The notes: generated by a model not told the origin, from the letters alone. A DNA stretch of 64,000 nucleotides from Wickerhamiella versatilis (GCA_030867685.1 JAQOWU010000008.1:3596001-3660000); one strand, 5' to 3'. Shown: positions 7,549-23,300, counted from the stretch's first letter. Numbers and translations are program-made.

Positions 7549-7620
7549 GACTGCGTGGCGCAATGGTAGCGCATTGTCTTCCGGCGGCAAAGGTTGCGGG
7601 TTCGAGTCCCGCCGTGGTCT
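7549..7620 (+). tRNA. tRNA-Arg(CCG)
   Basis: Cloverleaf: acceptor GACTGCG/CGTGGTC, D-stem GCGC/GCGC, anticodon stem TTGTC/GGCAA with loop TTCCGGC, T-arm GCGGG-TTCGAGT-CCCGC. No intron. Confidence 0.93.
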
Positions 7621-11662: not shown

Positions 11663-13111
11663 ATGGCAGCAAGTCAACGCGATAGTAATAGTGAAAATTG
11701 GAAAATGAATATACATCCTCCCGCAAGGTCCTCCAGTAGTACGTATCCCGGCGTTTTGGGGGGGTCGGGCGACTCCTCTAGTTCGGGGGAGGGAGGAGAT
11801 GAGGATGACGAGGAAGATATACAGGGCTATTCTTTCGACTTTGAGGATAAGCCTCCCATGCATGTGATTCAGAGAATGCTGCCTAGTGACTTTTCACAAG
11901 ACGAAGATGATGAGGCAACAGACAATGGTGATGATAGTGAGATGGATCAAAGTGAAGGGGAAATTATGGACAGCGATGATCAAAAAAGTGAAGATGGAAG
12001 CGATACAGAGGAATTTGGTGGGTTTAAAACCAGCAGCGAGAGCTTCAGTGATAATGAGCAAGCAATTGCTAGCAGCAGTAGTGACGAGTCGATCAAAAAT
12101 GAGGAGAATGATTTTTTTCGGAATGACCAACTCTCGGATAGCGAAAAAAGTCATGGTGGGAATTCCGAGGATGAAGATGATGAAGAAGACGATGATTTTT
12201 TTGACGACTTTTTCGATATTGAAACTACGTTGCAAAGCATACCACCAGAGGAACACTCATTTGCCTCTTACAACCGTGATGACAGCGAAAATGACAGCGA
12301 TAGCTATTTATGGGAGTATTTTCTGACTTCAGATGAGGATGATACGTTCGGCTATGTACGTGGAAGACGGTATTCACAGGTAGATGGCGTCCCTCAGGAG
12401 GTCAGCGGTGACTCCACTGACGAAGACGATAGTGTACCATCAACGGCCCAAAGAGCACAGGGGACTAAGGCTGTTGAAGTGCTTGGCGTCGATACGTTCA
12501 GCACTCGTCCTCCAGTTCTAGGACAGTGGGACATTAATGACAACGAAAACAAGCAAGTTGGAATTATTGATGGTCTAACAACCCGTTCTCTAACCCCTGG
12601 TGCCCCTCAAACTCCAAATGCTGTGGATTCCAATGCCGCTGGTTCGGCGGGAACCACAGACAAAGTTGAGACTCCTCAGACTGATGTCACACCGACGCCG
12701 AAGGATAACACTCCACAACCACGAATCTACTCCGAAGCGCTACACTCTGATTCAGACTACAGCGATGTCGAATTGGAAGAATTTATGAACACAAAGGAAA
12801 TGGACTTAGACAGTGATGACGACACGTCTGCCTTTCAATCATCGGCGGACCAACGTCCAAAAGTCCCGTTGTCAGCGTTTCGCAATCGTGGTGGTGCACA
12901 GGGCCCGCAGCAAATGGCATTTCGGCGGCGTCGAAGCAGTTTGGCCAACTCAGGAGATTTCATCTCACCCCTGAAGGGGTTGCACCGGAAGAAACGTCAG
13001 CGAGTGCGCAAGATACCATCGCCTAAGATGGAGCCACAAGAAAATAATAACAAAGACTTCGTAGACGAACTTATGGAGGTTAACGCGATTAGCCCGCTAT
13101 TCGGCATATAG
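11663..13111 (+). CDS. IFH1: Ifh1/Crf1-like ribosomal-protein-gene coregulator
   Basis: Highly acidic protein with SGDSTDEDDS...KAVEVLG...STRPPVLGQW...VGIIDGLTTRSL forkhead-binding-type segment and PLSAFRNRG motif. Confidence 0.72.
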   Translation: MAASQRDSNSENWKMNIHPPARSSSSTYPGVLGGSGDSSSSGEGGDEDDEEDIQGYSFDFEDKPPMHVIQRMLPSDFSQDEDDEATDNGDDSEMDQSEGEIMDSDDQKSEDGSDTEEFGGFKTSSESFSDNEQAIASSSSDESIKNEENDFFRNDQLSDSEKSHGGNSEDEDDEEDDDFFDDFFDIETTLQSIPPEEHSFASYNRDDSENDSDSYLWEYFLTSDEDDTFGYVRGRRYSQVDGVPQEVSGDSTDEDDSVPSTAQRAQGTKAVEVLGVDTFSTRPPVLGQWDINDNENKQVGIIDGLTTRSLTPGAPQTPNAVDSNAAGSAGTTDKVETPQTDVTPTPKDNTPQPRIYSEALHSDSDYSDVELEEFMNTKEMDLDSDDDTSAFQSSADQRPKVPLSAFRNRGGAQGPQQMAFRRRRSSLANSGDFISPLKGLHRKKRQRVRKIPSPKMEPQENNNKDFVDELMEVNAISPLFGI

Positions 13112-13134
13112 AACTAGTTATAAAATAAAGTACT

Positions 13135-14016
13135 CTACACCAGTGCAGTGAGTTCTGACGATAGACGCAGTTGTGATTTGATCGTATTCGTGAGGCTTAC
13201 GATGGTGAGCAAGTCCTTGAAATATGATGTATAGAGTTTGTCCGAAGAGAGACACGGCACAAGGCTCAAGGTCCGGTAAAGGTACTTACCCACAGCAACG
13301 TTGGCTGGCTTGGATCCAGTGAGAACTTCACGGACGTAATGTTGGACCCGGGTAAGCTCATCAATAAGCTCTTCTAAAGAATTTTCAAGTTCAGCATTGA
13401 GAGGCAATACTTCAGCACGGCGGTCGTGGGTGCTAGCACCAGCATTGATGACACCAAGGGCGGCCTGTTCAACAGGCATATACTCCACAACATTACGTAC
13501 TGGCAAGAAAATGCAATTACCAGCACTTTGGTCTGAAGGCACTCCAACGGCCGAGGCGACATAGGTTGACACATTGAGACTTCCGTCGACTACGTCAAGA
13601 GTTAAGTGCAACGCAGGATGGGGATAAGTACCACTTCCAGGTTGAGAGAATAGGTCGTGTATGAGGGCCGACAAATTGTTGAGTTCTGGGCTAGTTGCAT
13701 ACCACCCTAAAATATTGTAGTCAGGCGACGCTTTACGAATGAGATATGCCATCTCACGATGGTACTCGATGTTCACATTAACTGTGTCCTCAGTCTCGCT
13801 GATGGGGACAATATAAGCTGACTTTACTTCAACCTCATTGCCGTCATCGCTGCGAGTACCCATCAGGGTCCCGATGACCCGCTTCTGGTTCTCCTTACGG
13901 CGAACAGAGTGTGCTAGGATTTGATAAAGTGCCTGTGCATCCACGGACACCTTCGAAGGATACTGGACAGCTTGCCAGCCAGCCGCTAGTGCTGGTCTAG
14001 TGATCTGAAGGGCCAT
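13135..14016 (-). CDS. Translation initiation factor eIF3 subunit F (MPN/JAB1 domain)
   Basis: ALYQILAHSVRR...RVIGTLMGTRS...LGWYATS. Likely start MALQ at 14016 (ORF open from 14088). Confidence 0.85.
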   Translation of the reverse strand: MALQITRPALAAGWQAVQYPSKVSVDAQALYQILAHSVRRKENQKRVIGTLMGTRSDDGNEVEVKSAYIVPISETEDTVNVNIEYHREMAYLIRKASPDYNILGWYATSPELNNLSALIHDLFSQPGSGTYPHPALHLTLDVVDGSLNVSTYVASAVGVPSDQSAGNCIFLPVRNVVEYMPVEQAALGVINAGASTHDRRAEVLPLNAELENSLEELIDELTRVQHYVREVLTGSKPANVAVGKYLYRTLSLVPCLSSDKLYTSYFKDLLTIVSLTNTIKSQLRLSSELTALV

Positions 14017-14438
14017 GAAATTTTCAGCTGAGTAATACACAGTGCTATTTGACCGTGGATTCTGACTTGATTCCTTCATCACAACCATCCCTGGGTATAT
14101 AAGATGGAGCTCTTGCGATGTGGATAAGCTTCAGTGTTATAGCTCGTAGCATAGAGTGCAAGCCATAGTTTGTTGATAGGGGAAGAAATGACCGTCATAC
14201 ACTATTTATAAGGCATACTGCGTTCTGAGCCACCACGATTCATATTCAGATACACCTATAAGAATTAGTTGATGTACAGTGTGAAACTACCAGTATTAAG
14301 AGTATCACTCTTGTAATCGTTGCCATCACAGTGCGCAATGTGCAACTTTGTCCGAGATGTTAGGGTTGATGGCTATCGGCAACCGTCTTTGTAAATCCTA
14401 TATGTACTGTCCTAACATTGTCTGGATTTATCTCTGTC

Positions 14439-14849
14439 ATGGCACACACTCGTATCCGCCCATTCAACACTAAGCAGACTTATCCCGAACAGAATCTTGA
14501 CAATGATCTTTGCCAAGCTGTTGTCACGAAAAATGGTACAATCTACCTGCGCGGGCAAGTGCCTCAGGATCTTGATACACGAGAGAACGTTGGCGTAGGT
14601 GACATTGCTGCCCAAGCGACGAAGGTTATTGAGAATATTGAGCTCTTGATTAAGGAGTCGGGCGCCCAGCTCACTGACATTTGCAAGGTGGTAGTTTATC
14701 TTACTGACATCAGGCATCGCGAAACTGCATACCGCATTCTTGGGTCTCGCTTGAAGGGTGTTTTTCCAGTGTTTACAGGGCTGGTCGTTGTAGCGTTGGC
14801 ACGCCCTGAGTGGTTGATAGAGGTTGATGTGATTGCTGAACGCCAGTAA
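14439..14849 (+). CDS. Rid (YjgF/YER057c/UK114) family protein, bacterial HinL-like
   Basis: MAHTRIRPFNTKQTYPEQNLDNDLCQAVV...YLRGQV...KVVVYLTD...TGLVVVALARPEWLIEVDVIA matches a bacterial Rid subfamily as recalled. First ATG at 14439. Confidence 0.88.
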   Translation: MAHTRIRPFNTKQTYPEQNLDNDLCQAVVTKNGTIYLRGQVPQDLDTRENVGVGDIAAQATKVIENIELLIKESGAQLTDICKVVVYLTDIRHRETAYRILGSRLKGVFPVFTGLVVVALARPEWLIEVDVIAERQ

Positions 14850-14857
14850 ATATTAGT

Positions 14858-16024
14858 TTACATAGCTAAGTCATCTACAATTTTTGTAAGAAAGTTGACA
14901 CCATCCTTTAGTTCTTCTGGAAGAATGTATTCATCAGCCTTATGTGCGCGATTTATGGAACCAGGACCACATACTGCTACAGGGAAGTCCTTTCCGAGAT
15001 AGTGCTGGTAAAGTCCTCCTTCAGTTCCAAAATTAATACGTCCTGAAGTGTTAGAAGTTTTCCCTACGAAAGATGCGAGTTTTTCAGGAAAGACGTCATG
15101 AGGAGCAGGGTTTAAACCTGGGTACGAGGTAAGCTTTAGTATCTCAACTTTTCCATTGGGATACTTCTCTTTTAGGACTTTTTCAGCTCTCGATTCCAAG
15201 TAAGATATGTAATATTCTGGAGTCTTCGATCCTGAGAGTAAACGCATTTCGAATTCTATTTCACACAGGTCTGGCACAATGTTGACGGCGACACCGCCCT
15301 TCATGACCCCCACCTGGACTGTGCCATGAGGTACTTCATACGTCTTATCGGATGGGCCATCTTCTATTAACCCCTTTTGCAACAAGTCTATTTCTCTGAC
15401 CATGTCACAACCTAACATTACAGCATTGCAACCAAGTGCTGGATTCGAAGAGTGGGCACTTTGCCCGTGGCAACGAACTCTAGCCGCCAGCTTACCCTTA
15501 TGACCAGTCATTACAGTCATAAGTGTGGGCTCACCAATGACGCAACCAGAAGCTTTGAATGCAGTTTTCTGGAGATGTTCTAATAGGGATCGAATGCCCA
15601 CACACCCAATCTCCTCGTCAAAAGACACTGCAAGGTGAAGAGGTCTTGCAAGTTTCGTTTTCTTGGATGCATACTTAGCTGCGACAAGCATACAAGCAAG
15701 AAACCCTTTCATGTCGCTGGTTCCACGGCCGAACAGTTTACCATCTTTCTCGGTAAGTGAAAAGGGGTCCGTGGACCAAGGTTGACCATCGACTGGTACA
15801 ACATCACTGTGTGCGGATAGTACGATTCCATTGTCTCCTGCAGGCCCCATGCTAGCCAGTAAATTATATTGTCCTGGACTAGTTCCTTGAATACGCACAC
15901 AGCGAGCACCAAGCGGGTTAAGATAATTTTCTACCCAATCAATGAGCTGGCTGTTTTCCCTGCGGCACACAGTTGGAAAAGCAACTAACTTTTCTAGAAT
16001 CGTCCTGGCACTCATATCAGGCAT
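14858..16024 (-). CDS. M20 metallo-amidohydrolase, acetylornithine deacetylase ArgE-like (HinG-like)
   Basis: LSAHSDVVP, GRGTSDMKG, SFDEEIGC, IGEPT, GHKGK, AHSS and AHKADEY metal-binding motifs. Start is 16024 or 16015. Confidence 0.9.
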   Translation of the reverse strand: MPDMSARTILEKLVAFPTVCRRENSQLIDWVENYLNPLGARCVRIQGTSPGQYNLLASMGPAGDNGIVLSAHSDVVPVDGQPWSTDPFSLTEKDGKLFGRGTSDMKGFLACMLVAAKYASKKTKLARPLHLAVSFDEEIGCVGIRSLLEHLQKTAFKASGCVIGEPTLMTVMTGHKGKLAARVRCHGQSAHSSNPALGCNAVMLGCDMVREIDLLQKGLIEDGPSDKTYEVPHGTVQVGVMKGGVAVNIVPDLCEIEFEMRLLSGSKTPEYYISYLESRAEKVLKEKYPNGKVEILKLTSYPGLNPAPHDVFPEKLASFVGKTSNTSGRINFGTEGGLYQHYLGKDFPVAVCGPGSINRAHKADEYILPEELKDGVNFLTKIVDDLAM

Positions 16025-16070
16025 ACGTAGGTAGGTATCTTACATGCTCGGATTTAGTACCTCTACAGGG

Positions 16071-16191
16071 CTAGTTATTGTTAGTCATTACAAGCTGACT
16101 TCATGGTGGAGAAAGCCCGATTGCAATATTTTGATAAAGAAGAATGATATCTAGGTGCGCACATAGACTATTTACAACAGAAAGTACTTAC
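16071..16191 (-). other. Putative 121-nt spliceosomal intron in the 5' leader of the ArgE-like gene
   Basis: Minus strand GTAAGTACT...TGACTAAC-AATAAC-TAG. Same donor nonamer and short branch-to-AG spacing as the ERV14 intron in this window. Confidence 0.55.
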
Positions 16192-16262
16192 AGAAAGTCT
16201 TGTGTGATTCAACTAGTTAGCCTGGCATAACCCAGATATTCCACGATGTGAAACGTTGTACG

Positions 16263-16940
16263 TTACCGATCTCCTGGAACACCATATGAGGGCGCATCAC
16301 TGGGATTTAGACAACGTGTAACGTAGTCATGCATTTGTGGCTTCCAGATATTCCAGATTTTTTCGGTTTGATCTAAAGGTTTCTCATCCCAGTCTACACG
16401 AATATCAGCGATAGGCCAGGATACTTTATCTACAACAATCAATCCTGCTGAATATACAGGTCCGGCCTCACCACCAGCAGCAAGTCCAGCTTTCATCGCA
16501 GCTAGTAAACGGGTTCCAAGTTCATCGGAACCTGAAGACTTTTCAAATGCAGACACAATTATCTCTGGAACATCTGATTTGGATAGGAGGTTTCCAGCCG
16601 ACGCAACGTTTGTGCCCTTGTAGCTACCATTGGTGCCTAGAGTCTGTGAACCTGAGAAAACGGCAGTGTTACCGTCACGGTCCACTGCGCTAAGCTGTCG
16701 ATACTCCGGGAACTCACAAGTTCGTGAGACAATCTTGATTGCCTCCTCGGCTGATGCTCCTTGCTCCATTAGATCCAACAATTTCGGACCCAACCTCGGA
16801 TCCGTAACATTCTGTGTAGTGACGGCTCCCACACCAGCACGAGCATAGGCACAACGTGCTGCAACGGATGGTGATGAGGAAGAAACAGCGACAGCGAACT
16901 GTCCAGAGCGAGGACACCGAGCAACGATAGAAAATGTCAT
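16263..16940 (-). CDS. DUF1028 family protein (Ntn-hydrolase superfamily), HinH-like
   Basis: MTFSIVARC...GQFAVAVSS...RAGVGAVTTQN...YRQL...AGNLL...AGGEAGPVYSAGL...DIRVDW...YGVPGDR. Confidence 0.9.
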   Translation of the reverse strand: MTFSIVARCPRSGQFAVAVSSSSPSVAARCAYARAGVGAVTTQNVTDPRLGPKLLDLMEQGASAEEAIKIVSRTCEFPEYRQLSAVDRDGNTAVFSGSQTLGTNGSYKGTNVASAGNLLSKSDVPEIIVSAFEKSSGSDELGTRLLAAMKAGLAAGGEAGPVYSAGLIVVDKVSWPIADIRVDWDEKPLDQTEKIWNIWKPQMHDYVTRCLNPSDAPSYGVPGDR

Positions 16941-17016
16941 AGAGTGGAGTAGAAAGTTAGTAAGGAAATTTAATCCGACAAGGTACTGATAAGGTCTTTA
17001 AGGTCTTATTACCTAA

Positions 17017-18309
17017 TTATATCCTAGCTTGTTGGTAATCTTGGGTCGTAGCGAGTTCTTTAGATGGTACATACGCAAGATAGCTGTGCTGCTTGGCGAT
17101 GTGTTCAGCAATTAGTCGAGCATCATGCCAAACACCCCATATGAACGATGAACCACGTCGAGTTTGCCAAGGTAAACCGATATAGTATACGCCAGGTTCT
17201 GCAGAGAGCCCGCGATGCTGGTTAGGAAGACCTGAGGAACCAATAGCATTTGTCTTCATCCAACTATAATCGACTGTGAATCCTGTGGCCCAAATTATTG
17301 TTGTGATATTATCTTTTTGAAGATCCAATTCGAAAATTGGATGAACCAGGCTTTCAGGGTCATGAGGGAACTCCTTGGCAGATTCTTCCTCTGGCAAATT
17401 TATTCCCGTTTTTTCCACATATGCGTCTGCTTCCTGAAGTAGTGATAAGTAGTTAGCATCTCCTAAAGCAATATTTTGTGCAAGGTCAGGAGCAAATGTA
17501 ATTACTCCATTACGATAGCCACTGGTATGACCTAGCAGTGTAATACCATAATCGTTTGCCATTTTTCGAAAGTCGATTGTGTGCCCACCGTAGGCACCAC
17601 TGACGGCAATGGTCGTGTGGTCGGCACCAGGGGTAGTCTCCGAATCCCACATGTTTAGGACTCCAAGCCACCAAACAAAGTCTCTGTTACGATAACTACG
17701 TGGTGGACGATCATGTTTACCAACGGAGAGGTAAGTCTTCTTCCCACATCTCGAGAGTTCCTCTGCTATCTGTGCACCTGACGACCCAGCGCCAACGACG
17801 AGAACATTACCTTCAGGCAATTGATCGGGATTACGGTACATGGATGAATGCATCTGGGTTACGTTGGGGGAGTTTACTATCCCTGGAATTACAGGGATTT
17901 GAAACCCTCCTGTCGCAACAACCACACTTTCTGCAGCAATCACTGTCCCATTAGATGTAGTCACAATATACCCGACATGGCCTTCATTTCTTACACAATT
18001 GGTAACTTCAACACCTGTGTAAATTGGGGCGTTGATTTTTTGGGCATAAGATTCAAAGTATGTCACTACGTCATCCTTAGTGGCAAAATCATCAGGACCG
18101 CAGGTTTCGAAATTCATTCCTGGGAACTTATCATGCCAAGCAGGGCCATTGGCACTGAGTGAGTCCCACCTCGCAGTTCTCCAGCTCTCAGCGATTCTAT
18201 TCCGTTCGAAAATCATGTGAGGGATACCTGCATTTTGCAAGTGCTCACTCATTGCTAAACCTGCCTGTCCACCTCCAACTACCACTACACCAGTCGTTTT
18301 ATCCACCAT
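17017..18309 (-). CDS. Flavin-containing NAD(P)H-dependent monooxygenase (bacterial type), HinF-like
   Basis: GGGQAG FAD motif, AESWRTARWDSL, ATGGFQIP, HSSMYRNP, VLVVGAGSSGAQIAEEL NADPH motif, IIWATGF, SSFIWGVWHDA. Confidence 0.9.
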   Translation of the reverse strand: MVDKTTGVVVVGGGQAGLAMSEHLQNAGIPHMIFERNRIAESWRTARWDSLSANGPAWHDKFPGMNFETCGPDDFATKDDVVTYFESYAQKINAPIYTGVEVTNCVRNEGHVGYIVTTSNGTVIAAESVVVATGGFQIPVIPGIVNSPNVTQMHSSMYRNPDQLPEGNVLVVGAGSSGAQIAEELSRCGKKTYLSVGKHDRPPRSYRNRDFVWWLGVLNMWDSETTPGADHTTIAVSGAYGGHTIDFRKMANDYGITLLGHTSGYRNGVITFAPDLAQNIALGDANYLSLLQEADAYVEKTGINLPEEESAKEFPHDPESLVHPIFELDLQKDNITTIIWATGFTVDYSWMKTNAIGSSGLPNQHRGLSAEPGVYYIGLPWQTRRGSSFIWGVWHDARLIAEHIAKQHSYLAYVPSKELATTQDYQQARI

Positions 18310-18760
18310 TGACTATTATCAATTCAGTGAGACCTAAGCACATTTAAATCAGAAATAGTAGATAACTAATCACATCGGGATTAGTTACTTATATTATTTA
18401 AGCCTAGATAGTGCGTGAGTCGCTTGGGAGTTTCTGATTAAACTAAGGCAACTTTCTGCGATGGCTCTGGCAAATAAAGCGACAATAAAGGTTACTTTTG
18501 ATTCGTGCAACGAGTCAAAAACATAAAAATAATCGGTTTGACAGTCGTCCTAACTCATCATAGAGAAAAAAGAGACTCTATTAATTGAAATGTTACGAGA
18601 CTCACTTTGACTCCACATTGTAGACTACTAAGACAGCGCCAAGCAAGGTATGATATAATTCTCACTTAAGTCTACCTCATAAGACAACCTATAAAAACAA
18701 TTGCTTACTTTCGTAATAATGATAGACATACTAACTTGCTTTGATTTACCGGGCTGAGTC

Positions 18761-20305
18761 ATGAAAGTCTTGCGACCAGGCCTTGGACGAAGACTGACTC
18801 GGACAACCGTTTACGGTATATTTGGTGGAGGGATACTTTGCGCTTGGGATCAGAATTTTAACCGTGGTGTTATATCTCGTACCTTTTCTTGCCTATATAA
18901 TATTTCATATATTGGCATTGACTATAAGCTCAACTTTCGAGAGGGCGCCGACATTGATGCATTACATGAGCGGAGTGCCCAAAGATTATACAATCTTATT
19001 ACCCGAAACAAGGGGCTGTACATAAAACTTGGTCAGAGTCTTGCTGTGCAGGCAAATTTATTGCCACCGGCTTATGGTCAACGCCTCTCCCAGTTGTTCG
19101 ATAGAGCCCCGCAGGACTCGTGGGAACAATGTAGGGATACTATAGTTAAGGAGCTTGGTAGGGAGCCTGAAGATGTTTTTGCGTGGTTAGATACTAACGC
19201 CATAGCCTCCGCCTCGATTGCTCAAGTTCATCACGCCCAATTAAAAAATGGAGACGATGTGGCAGTGAAAATCCGACATGCTGATATACCAGATCTAACA
19301 TGGTGGGATTTGGAGACTTACAAGGCTATGATGTGGGTCTATGATAGATGGCTATTCCACATTCCGGTATATTTTGTGGCTAAATATGTAGCAAGTCAAT
19401 GCGAGAGTGAAATAGACTTTCGGAATGAACTCGTCAACACGGAAAAGATGAGAGCATTGGTATCGGGCGATAGGACATTGCGTGAGATGTATGTACCAAA
19501 GGTATATCCTGAGCTCAGTTCCGAAGCTCTACTAGTTATGGAATGGATCGATGGTATCAGTCTCTCGAATCCAGAGCAACTTAAAAGTAGCAAGTTGGAC
19601 ATCAAACGAGCTTTAACGTTAATATTCCGAGCGCTGTCCAAGATGACATTCGAATGGGGGGTGGTACATTGTGACCCGCACCCAGGGAATTGGATTTTAC
19701 GGCGTGATCCCATTAATAAATCACGGTCACAAATTGTAATGCTAGACCATGGTACTTATATCTACATGTCCCCTTCATTGGTAAGAGAATACTCTGACTT
19801 GTGGCGAGCCATGTTCCGACAAGATATAGAGACCGTGTCGAGAATCACAAAAACGTGGGGATTTGATGATCCAGAAATATTTGCATCTGCTACAATGCTT
19901 CAGTCATATGGTAAAGTTGGTAAGAATGAAAAATTTGTTAGCCGTGAGAAGGCTGCCGAACGCCTGCGGAATTTTATCAAAGATACAGAACGGGTTCCAT
20001 TGGCTCTTGTTTTTATTGGACGTGCTCAGCGCATTCTACAGGGCGTAAACCGCATGTATGGATCACCAGTCAACCGGATCCGTATAATCGTTGAGGGTGC
20101 TACAAGTGTCTCTCCCAGTTCACATGGGATCGTGCGTAACCTTATTGCCCGTTTATGGCGGACAACCCTTCTTTTGGCTAGCGAAATATTGTTCTTTTTG
20201 CTGCAGTTGCGGCAGCGATTTACCGGAGAAAATCTTGAGGATATGTTTGATAATTCAATACGGGAACAGGCAGGCGAAACCCTCAATGGGGGTGGTAGTA
20301 ATTGA
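18761..20305 (+). CDS. ABC1/UbiB atypical kinase (Mcp2/ADCK1-like, mitochondrial)
   Basis: YIKLGQ, ASASIAQVH, VAVK, HCDPHPGN, LDHG motifs. Confidence 0.88.
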   Translation: MKVLRPGLGRRLTRTTVYGIFGGGILCAWDQNFNRGVISRTFSCLYNISYIGIDYKLNFREGADIDALHERSAQRLYNLITRNKGLYIKLGQSLAVQANLLPPAYGQRLSQLFDRAPQDSWEQCRDTIVKELGREPEDVFAWLDTNAIASASIAQVHHAQLKNGDDVAVKIRHADIPDLTWWDLETYKAMMWVYDRWLFHIPVYFVAKYVASQCESEIDFRNELVNTEKMRALVSGDRTLREMYVPKVYPELSSEALLVMEWIDGISLSNPEQLKSSKLDIKRALTLIFRALSKMTFEWGVVHCDPHPGNWILRRDPINKSRSQIVMLDHGTYIYMSPSLVREYSDLWRAMFRQDIETVSRITKTWGFDDPEIFASATMLQSYGKVGKNEKFVSREKAAERLRNFIKDTERVPLALVFIGRAQRILQGVNRMYGSPVNRIRIIVEGATSVSPSSHGIVRNLIARLWRTTLLLASEILFFLLQLRQRFTGENLEDMFDNSIREQAGETLNGGGSN

Positions 20306-20349
20306 GCAAAATTTTAGATACTAGACTGCTAATAGAGAAGTGTAATAAA

Positions 20350-23300
20350 TTACTGACGTAGTCTCTGTGATGAAGAGCGTTCTCTTACTCTGCGAGCCGC
20401 TTCCAGCGCACGTTGACTGGGAGAAGCTTGGGAGACCGTGGTGGGTGGTGTCCCTTGTGAGCTTGAGTTTGACGAGGAACGCACCCCATTAGCACCCCCT
20501 AAAGACTGTTGCCTGGGCTGTGTTTGCGTAGTTGGCACAGAAGATGACTTCGACACTTTACTTGAATCCATAGCTGGAGCAGGTCTTTCTGTGCTAGGTG
20601 GATGAGAAGGTTGAAATTCACGACTCCGAGAATCTCTTAAGTTTGCCCTTGTCCTGATACTCTCAGAACTCTTCACACTAGGTATATCTCTTGGAGTTGA
20701 CCGAGACTCAACTTCGCGACTGCGAACATCTCGTATATTCGACCTTGTTTTCATGCTTTCAGTACTCTTCATATTAGGAATACTTTTTGGGGCCGATCGG
20801 GCTCCAATACCACGACTGCCCGGACTTGCCACATCACTGGCAATTTCAGTTGTTTTAGTATTGTCAGTACCACTTACTCTGGGAATACTTTGTGGAGTTG
20901 ACCGAGCCTCGGCTTGAGGATGTCCTCCTGTTGCAGCAGCAGACCCACTTCGCTTTTTCTGTAGCAATTCTCTCTCAACTGGAACTGATTGCTCAACAGA
21001 AATGTTCGCCTTAGAGGAATTTGTGGACGATTTCTCCAGCTGCTCAGAGGAGATTGCAGAAAGAGGTTTAGTAGCATGCTGTTCTGGATGTTCCGATTTG
21101 GAGCTAAAATCAACAGACTTCTTTGGTCGTAAATACGAGGTACTTGCACGAGCTGTCGCTTTAGAGTCCTCTGTGTTTCCGCTTCCGAAATATTCTTTAA
21201 GCTGTGCCAATTGCTCACTGAGAGCTGGAGCACGAGAATCATGGCGATGTTTTAGTCGAAGCAACAGACTTAAATCTTCGAAAGTGAGGTCAGTTTCACG
21301 ATTGCGAGCTTTCTCTAAAATAAGGTTAGGCGAGAGCCTGAAAAGGTCATAATAGCTCGCTGCACGAGAGAAGTTGACGGACTTAGGATCGGCAACCAAG
21401 CTTGTAAGTAGCTGCTGAAGGGAGAAAATGCTGGAGCATACTCTGTCATGTCCCGCTTCTGTCAACTCAGGAATAACCTCACTCTTCAGAATGAAGAGCT
21501 CCTGCATAAGTTGTGGAATACCGTAAAATACATAATCTCGATCATGTTCACTCATGCGCTCCCTGCATATGTCGCTCGTACCAGCAAGCTCCCGTTGCAG
21601 AGCGTCCACAACTAAGTTTGGTTCTTCACGACGTCTACTAGCGAAATTGCCTCTCTCGAACATTTGATCAAGATAATAAACTACACGGAGCATTGTATCT
21701 ACACGCAGCAAAGAAAGAATGCGCCAAGCCAGGTCATCAAGGCCTGTAGTGATTGTATCAAAACGTGTGAGTTCGTCATTGTCTAGTACAGCACCAGCGC
21801 CATGTTGTGAGGAAACTTCTAGCAAAGTCCAGCGCTTTCGCACACGAGTACGAAGTGCTTGGGCATTTTCGGAGGAATTCTCTGCCGCTCTCACCACCCT
21901 CATTTTTCGTAAACGAGCAGCTATCCACTCAGAGCTTGTCGCTAACAGAGCCATTGTTCGGAATACTTCCGTATCGAGCAGATCAGATATTTTTAGATGT
22001 GCTTTAGCACTATTTCGGCGAGCAAGATAAACTTTGATCTCGGAATGGAAATCACTCGTATTGTTTGCGTACAAAGCCCGTAAAAGTGGTTCTGAATCCC
22101 GGAGTATGGACTGTGAAACCTGGTTTTTACCACCTGAAACATCTTGTTCAACCATTTTGTCCTCGAAATACTGCTGTACAGTTTCAAGAAGATCAAGAAG
22201 TAAATTGGCATACTCCGCACGGAAATGCGCACCTGTGTTAAGAAGTTGACAAAGTAGATATACAAGATCAACAAATTTAACAGAGGCGATCGTAATCGGC
22301 AACTGCGAACGTTTTGACCATTCAGATTGAACCTGAAGACCTGCGGGATCTGCAAGTATATCATCAAAAGCATGTTGTAAAGCGAGTTCGAGTCGAGGCA
22401 TGAAGGTACGACGCAGCCAGTCATCAAGAAATCGGTCCATGTAGGAGACACATGTATCAAAGCCCTTCAAAATGGTGCGGGTACGCTGTAAAAACCCCGC
22501 TGTAGGCTCCAACAACGCTCGCACATTTAAAATGTGGGCAGGAACCACAACACTTAGGTGTGCCTCACGGACTGTATCTGCAAATGGCGACCCAAGCGTC
22601 GAAAGGTCTGGTGTGAGCCCTGGTACTGATTTTTTCAGTGATTTGAGCAATACGTCGAGGTCTGCTGTTGAAGCAGGTGGCTCATCACCAAACTCAAACA
22701 ACGGCCCGACCCAACGACTCCTGGTGGTCCCACTGTCCATGCTCGAAAAAGATCTTCCACGAGCCCGCAGAACTGGAACGCCGGACTCATCAATATATGT
22801 CAAAAGAAAGCTTGCAAGTTCGTCCCTAAGGGCAGTACAAACCTCATTCAAAGGATAATCAATATTTCCGATTTTTATAGCAACATCCGCAACAACGCGA
22901 TGCGCTTCAAGGGATGCCGCTAATTTGGTGAACAATGTGACTGCCAGAGCCTCCAATATGCGCAAAGAGTCGTGTCTTTGGTCAAATAGATGCGTTGGGA
23001 CTGATCGACGCAACGATTCAACAGTAATATGCGCCTGTTTCACAGCATCAGCAACAGTCTCTTCCACAAGTTGCTGGAAGTCAGGTTTGAGTGTCTGTAC
23101 AAGTTGTTCTAGTCCAGTCCCCAGACTATTAAGATCCCTTAAAGTAACCAATAAAGACTTGATGTATTCAAAAGTATTCTGCTCGGCTGGCTGATCGTCA
23201 GGAAGAGTTGTGGCTGTATCCTGCTCGTGCAGAAAATTCTCGAGAGAGCTTTGCTTACCCACGCCATCCTGGAAATTCAGCCTACTTCGCAATGCATTCT

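Follow-up and report, generated by a model that had tools for sequence, protein, structure and literature searches.

Positions 14439-18309 of a 64,000-nucleotide stretch of the yeast Wickerhamiella versatilis (GCA_030867685.1 JAQOWU010000008.1:3596001-3660000; the whole stretch is referred to below as the window) hold four adjacent genes that almost certainly, to judge from their sequences, descend from an operon of the type found in Acetobacter, and that combine the protein families of the bacterial hinFLHG module for the breakdown of imidazole-4-acetate. They encode a Rid protein, an M20 metallo-amidohydrolase, a DUF1028 protein and a flavin monooxygenase (FMO), and they lie between two native genes, for eIF3 subunit f (eIF3f) and an ABC1-type kinase. 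The block adds a new and genuine case to the known horizontal transfers of operons into yeasts, with a new donor, a putative new catabolic pathway and possibly a new host lineage; the transfer, which the first-pass annotation had proposed, is supported by the gene trees, by a clustered donor, by chromosomal integration and by transcription. Our full explanation joins an operon transfer of the Acetobacter type to a hin-type catabolism of imidazole-acetate, for which we infer both the substrate and the enzymatic steps, and taken as a whole we consider it probable. The genes of the block are as follows.

14439-14849, + strand: Rid (YjgF/L-PSP) protein, HinL-like, putative enamine/imine deaminase; 136 amino acids, Pfam PF01042
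14858-16024, - strand: M20 metallo-amidohydrolase of ArgE/DapE type, HinG-like, putative N-formyl-aspartate deformylase; 388 amino acids, family from Pfam
16263-16940, - strand: DUF1028 protein of the Ntn-hydrolase superfamily, HinH-like, putative amidase of the ring-opened intermediate; 225 amino acids, family from Pfam
17017-18309, - strand: FMO with two dinucleotide-binding sites (FAD/NAD(P)H), HinF-like, putative imidazole-acetate monooxygenase; 430 amino acids

The nearest sequences for all four proteins come from a gene cluster in Acetobacter, which is the presumed donor type. Our first scan covered one genome per prokaryote species by alignment with the FMO and returned at least 579 relatives in at least 590 matched stretches; 80 bacterial loci were kept, and the four yeast proteins were compared with them by tblastn. 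A. sicerae and A. oeni were the best of the 80 loci for all four proteins at once. Rid is 83% identical to its A. sicerae ortholog and 79% to that of A. oeni, and at most 66% identical in the other 78 loci, while M20 is 59% and 55% identical to the same two species and 38-44% identical in the other genera of the 80 loci. A set of 16 Acetobacter loci was then defined by these two species and 14 more, and 14 of the 16 carry all four genes (FMO 59-66%, Rid 79-85%, DUF1028 60-71% and M20 55-59% identical to the yeast proteins); the FMO itself is carried by 24 of 57 Acetobacter genomes at E <= 1e-100. The best named database matches are likewise from Acetobacter (68% for DUF1028, 66% for FMO and 57-59% for M20), the DUF1028 cluster P0005 of the A. 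pasteurianus/pomorum/ascendens group being 71% identical, and after Acetobacter it is other Acetobacteraceae that come next in the match lists for DUF1028 and M20. Taken over the best named Acetobacter relatives, identities are 61-66% for FMO, 81-85% for Rid, 66-71% for DUF1028 and 57-59% for M20. No fungal name occurs among the 120 best database matches listed for each of DUF1028, FMO and M20, where such names as are given are all bacterial. Wider sampling brought no nearer sequence: no M20 closer than the 60% of A. sicerae was found in 251 sampled Acetobacteraceae genomes, and a metagenome scan with the yeast FMO listed 80 loci, all 58-63% identical and bacterial-like, with no close relative among them. 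Together with the trees described below, this allows the safe conclusion that Acetobacter, or a close relative of it, was the donor.

A second lineage carries at least three of the genes, DUF1028 (84% identical), FMO (75%) and M20 (75%), on one 62.5-kb contig, and this lineage is sister to the window genes in every tree that contains it. All trees come from quick IQ-TREE searches, with support given only by the Shimodaira-Hasegawa-like approximate likelihood ratio test (SH-aLRT). The M20 tree has 81 rows, among them 18 database proteins and every one of the 62 loci covered to at least 85%; the two yeast proteins pair there (support 100) within a clade of 22 Acetobacter M20 proteins that are linked to the cluster (100), and this clade itself falls within the Acetobacteraceae (95). 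In the Rid tree (53 rows, comprising all Acetobacter loci and the even-numbered other loci), the window protein similarly falls within the Acetobacter clade (96), from which A. oeni is excluded (92). When the four genes were concatenated (40 rows: the two yeasts, the second without Rid, 14 Acetobacter and 24 of the 48 other complete loci), the yeasts and Acetobacter were united with a support of 100 and A. oeni stood outside the rest with 95, in an analysis that carried a program warning that the yeast rows are deviant in amino-acid make-up. The stem below the yeast pair in this tree measures 0.5, compared with 0.21 and 0.12 for the branches after the split, and a stem longer than the later branches implies either that the transfer predates the split of the two lineages or that evolution was fast just after transfer. 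The M20 protein of the second lineage (P0261, 442 amino acids) has 54 extra N-terminal residues without a counterpart in the window or in bacteria, probably reflecting an upstream ATG picked by the gene caller.

The four genes are also neighbours in the presumed donor. In 14 of the 16 Acetobacter loci all four are confined to about 8-11 kb, and in 13 of these 14 they are co-oriented; 12 of the 16 loci share a single one-strand order, DUF1028-FMO-(aldehyde dehydrogenase)-Rid-NCS1 permease-GMC oxidoreductase-M20-LysR, in which the aldehyde dehydrogenase is present in eight loci. Compared with this cluster, for which our searches turned up no characterisation, the yeast block keeps four of 7-8 genes, has FMO and DUF1028 swapped and Rid inverted, is 15-43% diverged, and has a host-like GC content at third codon positions (GC3). 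The first-pass annotation had proposed bacterial proteins, a single clustered donor and an operon transplanted into the yeast. The bacterial origin is borne out by the match lists for three proteins and by the 81-85% identity of Rid to Acetobacter, and the clustered donor by the 14 compact loci; the transplanted operon holds as a four-gene cluster and fails as a colinear copy of a bacterial operon, given that the order differs, Rid is inverted and 3-4 donor genes are missing. The term 'operon' fits the donor, and the yeast version is a rearranged four-gene cluster.

In the history that we propose, an ancestor of the yeast would have taken up part of the operon from Acetobacter or from a close, possibly unsampled, relative within the Acetobacteraceae, and would have retained four of its genes after integration between eIF3f and the ABC1 kinase. 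The exchange of FMO and DUF1028 and the inversion of Rid would have followed integration; the LysR regulator would have been lost together with the permease, the GMC oxidoreductase and the aldehyde dehydrogenase; and each remaining gene would have gained a short yeast intergenic region of its own, while base composition came to resemble that of the host. The simplest account is one uptake event, with deletions and two or more rearrangements afterwards. A side observation concerns the bacteria themselves: the cluster has a low GC3 of 0.37-0.46 in a locus of the A. pasteurianus group (L122), as against 0.69-0.76 in A. sicerae, and since so low a value is odd for an Acetobacter genome, it hints that the cluster has also moved between bacteria.

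With regard to function, all four hin-module families are present and physically clustered in the yeast. The hinFLHG genes of P. aeruginosa (PA5393-PA5390) are described as converting imidazole-4-acetate to aspartate and as being induced 240- to 2200-fold by histamine (PMC8231116), and their products are described as an FAD-monooxygenase (HinF, EC 1.14.13.5), an enamine deaminase (HinL), an amidase (HinH) and a second amidase (HinG, EC 3.5.1.8) (PMC6467879). FMO, Rid and DUF1028 occur together in 71 of our 80 bacterial loci and all four genes in 50; the colinear F-L-H-G order (FMO-Rid-DUF1028-M20, within 4.5 kb) is seen in 29, including 16 of the 21 Pseudomonas loci, and this count, together with the descriptions in the two papers, upholds the match to hinFLHG that the first-pass annotation had drawn. 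The comparison with Pseudomonas was made to these 21 loci and gave identities of 59-62% for FMO, 53-57% for Rid, 50-54% for DUF1028 and 38-42% for M20. The Pseudomonas systems (PA5393-PA5390 and the hin2 cluster of P. putida U) thus offer the same four families with matching described roles. The yeast block differs from them in having a eukaryotic host, an intergenic region for each gene and an activity that is predicted; in place of the one-strand F-L-H-G order, it has F-H-G on the minus strand and an inverted L on the plus strand, with no HinK-type LysR regulator nearby.

By orthology, the FMO would consume NAD(P)H and O2 to hydroxylate imidazole-4-acetate; DUF1028, as an amidase, and Rid, as a deaminase, would open and deiminate the ring product to give N-formyl-aspartate and ammonia; and the M20 hydrolase would then yield formate and L-aspartate. 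The classical intermediates of this route are imidazolone-acetate, formimino-aspartate and formyl-aspartate. On these grounds we think it likely that the yeast converts imidazole-acetate to aspartate, ammonia and formate, and it would in this way draw nitrogen from imidazole-acetate of histamine or histidine origin, in fermentations shared with Acetobacter and with histamine-forming bacteria.

The families first proposed for the four proteins are borne out by Pfam and NCBIfam. Pfam assigns Rid to Ribonuc_L-PSP (PF01042, 1.3e-17), M20 to Peptidase_M20 (1.7e-32) with M20_dimer (9.1e-18), the DUF1028 protein to PF06267 (5.4e-66), and the FMO to Pyr_redox_3 (2.9e-27) and FMO-like (3.1e-10). Among NCBIfam models, the FMO scores 348 bits with TIGR04046, under the cut-off of 498, and M20 scores 430.7 bits with NF005710, over the cut-off of 412. 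The FMO has two GxGxxG motifs (residues 12-17 and 173-178), which we take to be the defining dinucleotide-binding motif of class B-like flavin monooxygenases, and their glycines (G12, G14 and G17; G173, G175 and G178) are invariant in the ortholog alignment. Five His/Asp/Glu-Glu/Glu/His metal and catalytic motifs of M20 align with those of E. coli ArgE (7rsf). The DUF1028 protein begins M-T-F-S-I-V, as do all its close relatives, and this start aligns with that of the solved chain 2imh; Thr2, directly after the initiator methionine and hence a candidate N-terminal nucleophile, is kept in all relatives compared. Altogether the four yeast proteins keep 247 of the 253 columns that are invariant in bacteria, that is, 115 of 120 in FMO (94 orthologs), 35 of 35 in Rid (84), 39 of 40 in DUF1028 (83) and 58 of 58 in M20 (62).

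Some further features of the proteins may be recorded here. Both yeast FMO families end in D-Y-(Q/H)-Q-A-R-I (17017-17061 in the window), and the 10 residues that precede this end have diverged. The A-R-I end is missing from the other FMO match families, the FMOs of Acetobacter being 10-11 residues shorter, and the other three proteins of the block have no such tail. A-R-I resembles the peroxisomal targeting signal PTS1, and it may be, speculatively, that the conserved C-terminus is a newly evolved signal of this kind. Close variants of the FMO (P0121 and P0258) differ from the window protein at 15-16 of 430 residues, a DUF1028 variant (P0001) differs at 3 of 225 and the M20 representative P0260 is 100% identical; the FMO branch is also the longest among the trees, and the FMO seems to evolve faster than the neighbouring genes of the block.

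A number of observations weigh against the account given so far, and they touch both its genealogical and its functional side. The DUF1028 tree (69 rows: the Acetobacter loci, the even-numbered others and 16 database proteins) places the yeast pair (99) among the Acetobacteraceae at a support of just 82-91, and the FMO tree (55 rows, with every third non-Acetobacter locus) puts the pair on a long stem (0.6) under an open backbone and names no donor, its nearest rows by path being those of Acetobacter. The claim that all four genes nest in one bacterial clade therefore stands for M20, Rid and the concatenate, is weaker for DUF1028, and gains no backing from the FMO tree. Moreover, the approximately unbiased (AU) test retains a tree in which an Acetobacter clade excludes the yeasts (p = 0.127), so that a position nested in the genus, inside Acetobacter as opposed to sister to it, is not established. 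When further database matches are included, the two yeast M20 proteins group (94) with P0262, P0267, P0272, P0274 and P0276, and the DUF1028 pair groups (84) with P0016, whose longest contig has the same length as that of P0274. These sister proteins are 55-60% identical to Acetobacter, and so equally distant from it as the yeast proteins, and the best match to P0272 in 401 sampled Acetobacteraceae genomes was 57%. All six sister proteins may belong to bacteria nearer to the donor or to further yeasts; if they are from yeasts, the transfer would be old and would have spread through a whole yeast clade.

On the functional side, the permease, aldehyde dehydrogenase and regulator of the donor were not found in the 64-kb window, and tblastn of six other Acetobacter operon proteins against it gave no match at 1e-3. 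The equation of HinH with DUF1028 and of HinG with M20 follows from gene order and from the descriptions in the two papers, and is to that extent provisional. The M20 protein exceeds the NCBIfam cut-offs for 'acetylornithine deacetylase', so that a different acyl-amino-acid substrate is possible. Rid scores 59 bits with the RidA-subfamily model TIGR00004, under the cut-off of 106, and the P-A-R motif of chain 3k0t, in which we place the key arginine of RidA, aligns with P-V-F in the yeast protein; by its sequence, the yeast Rid is a Rid-family member outside the archetypal RidA subfamily, as are the bacterial HinL-like orthologs. Finally, transcript levels across the block are low in the one RNA run analysed, X23.

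The same transfer from the Acetobacteraceae could have supplied enzymes that act, in the yeast and perhaps in Acetobacter too, on something other than imidazole-4-acetate, either another N-heterocyclic acid or, in the case of M20, an N-acyl amino acid. The NCS1 permease, GMC oxidoreductase and aldehyde dehydrogenase of the Acetobacter cluster are absent from the hinFLHG operon of Pseudomonas; M20, besides passing the deacetylase cut-offs, is only 38-42% identical to its Pseudomonas orthologs; and the yeast FMO combines its long branch with five changes at otherwise invariant positions. However, the FMO is 59-66% identical from Actinomycetota to Pseudomonadota and 71 of the 80 loci have it alongside Rid and DUF1028, and this conservation and linkage point to one conserved pathway, while imidazole-acetate catabolism is the sole role characterised for the module in the accounts of PMC8231116 and PMC6467879. 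Furthermore, the aldehyde dehydrogenase and alcohol oxidase of Acetobacter would fit an upstream feed into the same acid. We regard a different substrate as unlikely. The alcohol (GMC) oxidoreductase and aldehyde dehydrogenase of Acetobacter could feed imidazole-ethanol and imidazole-acetaldehyde into the pathway; these are Ehrlich-type products of histidine in yeasts, and one might imagine here a cross-feeding link between yeast and Acetobacter.

Expression bears on whether the block does anything at all in the yeast. Raw reads of the RNA sequencing (RNA-seq) run X23, from an organism coded A, cover all four genes without joints, and hence no introns are seen in the block. Depth per mate class is 17-36 for Rid, 4-10 for M20, 0.5-4 for DUF1028 and 1.5-5 for FMO, against 200-280 for eIF3f and 25-64 for the ABC1 kinase in the same run. 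Transcription this weak is as for an uninduced catabolic set, and is equally compatible with little use. No RNA run is among the matches listed in the indexed sequencing-run search. Depth below that of the neighbours in a single run, the absence of the donor transporter and regulator from the window, and the 15-16 amino-acid differences between close strain variants of the FMO, compared with 0-3 in DUF1028, would all suit a neutral or decaying passenger without function in the yeast. Yet the four open reading frames (ORFs) are intact and retain nearly all the residues invariant in bacteria (247 of 253), the second lineage, at 75-84% identity, has three or more of the genes intact on a single contig, and a fully host-like composition implies long residence without decay; we would be surprised if the block proved functionless. 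A separate observation concerns X19, a run from a strain diverged by about 2%, whose contigs stop at 16956, cover 17060-18318 and resume at 18749. Each of these points coincides with the end of a gene or lies no more than about 45 nt from one, and the mean word depth is 65 in the FMO and 29 in the ABC1 kinase. X19 therefore resembles a transcriptome with a well-expressed FMO; the RNA label is an unproven guess, and the run is not counted as evidence of expression.

Returning to the single transfer that we prefer, we note that the yeast order and orientation are unlike those of every donor locus seen and that the single-gene trees differ in resolution, as might follow if the genes had been acquired in several steps, or had come from different donors, and became adjacent only later. 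This is very improbable, since all four are most identical to the same Acetobacter genomes and are clustered there, in the yeast they sit together in 3.9 kb with a native gene on either side, and the concatenate is free of conflict, uniting yeast and Acetobacter at full support.

Several lines of evidence locate the block in the yeast chromosome. Measured per 500 bp, its GC content is 0.42-0.49, the same as in the flanks, and the GC3 of its genes (0.37-0.50) matches that of 24 native genes (0.35-0.51) and not that of the A. sicerae orthologs (0.69-0.76). The region 13100-20400 is present, at half or more of the sampled words, in 19 listed sequencing runs; the 20 matching rows trace to 11 studies, of isolates of organism A and of food, food-fermentation and sediment metagenomes, although 12 of the 20 may be the source of the window itself, and in eight runs the share of sampled words is 100%. 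Independent contigs cross the left junction: one of 3,698 nt from metagenome X16, which covers Rid and M20 and reaches into eIF3f on one side and DUF1028 on the other, and one of 8,991 nt from X19, a run of a strain (coded organism B) about 1.8% diverged (82 differences in 4,457 nt). A 221-kb contig of run X5, which may be the source of the window, spans 12500-21000 without a difference and is the only contig to bridge the right junction, where the independent support is the full word shares. The highest identity of any block protein to any bacterium is 85%, and the block is accordingly not contaminating bacterial DNA. The doubt over misassembly or contamination that had accompanied the first reading is answered by the host-like GC3, by the X16 and X19 contigs and by the RNA-seq reads: the block is not an artefact. 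That it arose by contamination or chimeric assembly, a view to which the right junction, bridged by the window and X5 alone, lends something, or that it is an old fungal cluster inherited vertically, is scarcely credible given the bridged left junction, the eight complete runs, a GC3 unlike that of A. sicerae, the ceiling of 85% identity, three lists of 120 top matches without a fungal name, and the nesting of the genes among bacteria in the M20, Rid and concatenate trees.

The remaining features of the locus are these.

13135-14088, - strand: eIF3 subunit f, native left flank, with JAB and MitMem_reg domains
14089-14438: left junction, a 350-bp divergent intergenic region between eIF3f and Rid
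16025-16262: 238-bp spacer between DUF1028 and M20
16941-17016: 76-bp spacer from the FMO stop to the DUF1028 start
18310-18760: right junction, a 451-bp divergent intergenic region between FMO and the ABC1 kinase, presumed promoter
18761-20305, + strand: ABC1/ADCK-type atypical kinase, native right flank (Pfam 5.4e-64)

The eukaryotic identity of both flanks is confirmed by Pfam, and among solved chains the left neighbour matches eIF3 subunit F at 6e-31 and Rpn8 only at about 1e-10. Further neighbours include Sec8, a protein kinase, a Gal10-like epimerase, mitochondrial L27, CBF/Mak21 and other ordinary fungal genes, and housekeeping surroundings of this kind place the block in a core chromosomal region. 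The ORF listing and the lack of RNA-seq joints likewise confirm four adjacent, intact and intronless genes at the place first described: all four ORFs are free of internal stops, they fill 3.9 kb with no other gene between them, and Rid starts at an ATG inside an ORF listed from 14418. Rid and M20 are convergent, with stop codons 8 bp apart. Tandem spacers elsewhere in the window are 43-102 bp long, and the genome is compact, so that the block spacers of 8, 76 and 238 bp are normal for the host. This dense packing can be seen in the 35 separate ORFs of at least 200 amino acids in the window and in its six convergent gene pairs, where stop-to-stop distances are 8-44 bp (23-44 bp for the pairs outside the block) and neighbouring 3' ends must overlap. 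The right junction has an AT content of 0.65, two GATAA sites and an RNA-seq depth of about 1-2. Across the four upstream regions of the block there are six GATAA sites in 1,115 bp, against a rate of 0.26 per 100 bp over the whole of the intergenic DNA. The excess of these nitrogen-regulation sites is roughly twofold, and the sites are too few to count as evidence. A search for marks of integration around the block (flanking repeats and tRNAs) found only short, chance-like repeats and no tRNA nearby, the sole tRNA found being a tRNA-Arg(CCG) at 7549-7620, 6.8 kb away.

The transfer described here has precedents in yeasts. An enterobactin operon in Wickerhamiella/Starmerella yeasts (Kominek et al.; bioRxiv 10.1101/399394) is likewise a multigene operon that became a eukaryotic chromosomal cluster; its donor was among the Enterobacteriaceae and its function is siderophore biosynthesis, whereas here the donor is of the Acetobacter type and the putative function is catabolic nitrogen scavenging. 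Thiamine-salvage transfers in Wickerhamiella/Starmerella (Goncalves & Goncalves 2019, as cited in PMC13376923) similarly involved operon genes that rebuilt a pathway, but concern another pathway and other donors, and are described as several layered transfers (PMC13376923). These two cases, enterobactin and thiamine salvage, are the bacterial operon transfers into yeasts counted in PMC13376923 (2026), the main text of which contains no histamine, imidazole, DUF1028, Acetobacter or monooxygenase. Our literature search found no report linking the imidazole-acetate module to a yeast, although the supplementary lists of yeast horizontal gene transfer surveys may contain the genes, and 'DUF1028' returned one paper, which was unrelated. 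The chances are about even that the block represents the third independent operon transfer into yeasts and the first from acetic acid bacteria, bringing a complete imidazole-ring-opening pathway with which the yeast can feed on imidazole-acetate that its fermentation partners make from histamine or histidine.

Whole-operon transfers into eukaryotes are very rare, and one more example, this time from another donor and with a predicted catabolic role, would add to our understanding of how polycistronic clusters become eukaryotic genes. It illustrates the loss of regulator and transporter, rearrangement, the acquisition of new spacers and the drift of base composition. The host is a yeast found in food fermentations, and Acetobacter is a habitual partner of yeasts in such fermentations. 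If the predicted function is true, no earlier fungal route to the opening of the imidazole ring in imidazole-acetate would have been predicted, and the finding would bear on nitrogen scavenging during fermentation, on cross-feeding that involves yeasts together with acetic acid bacteria and histamine formers, and on the removal of histamine from fermented foods.

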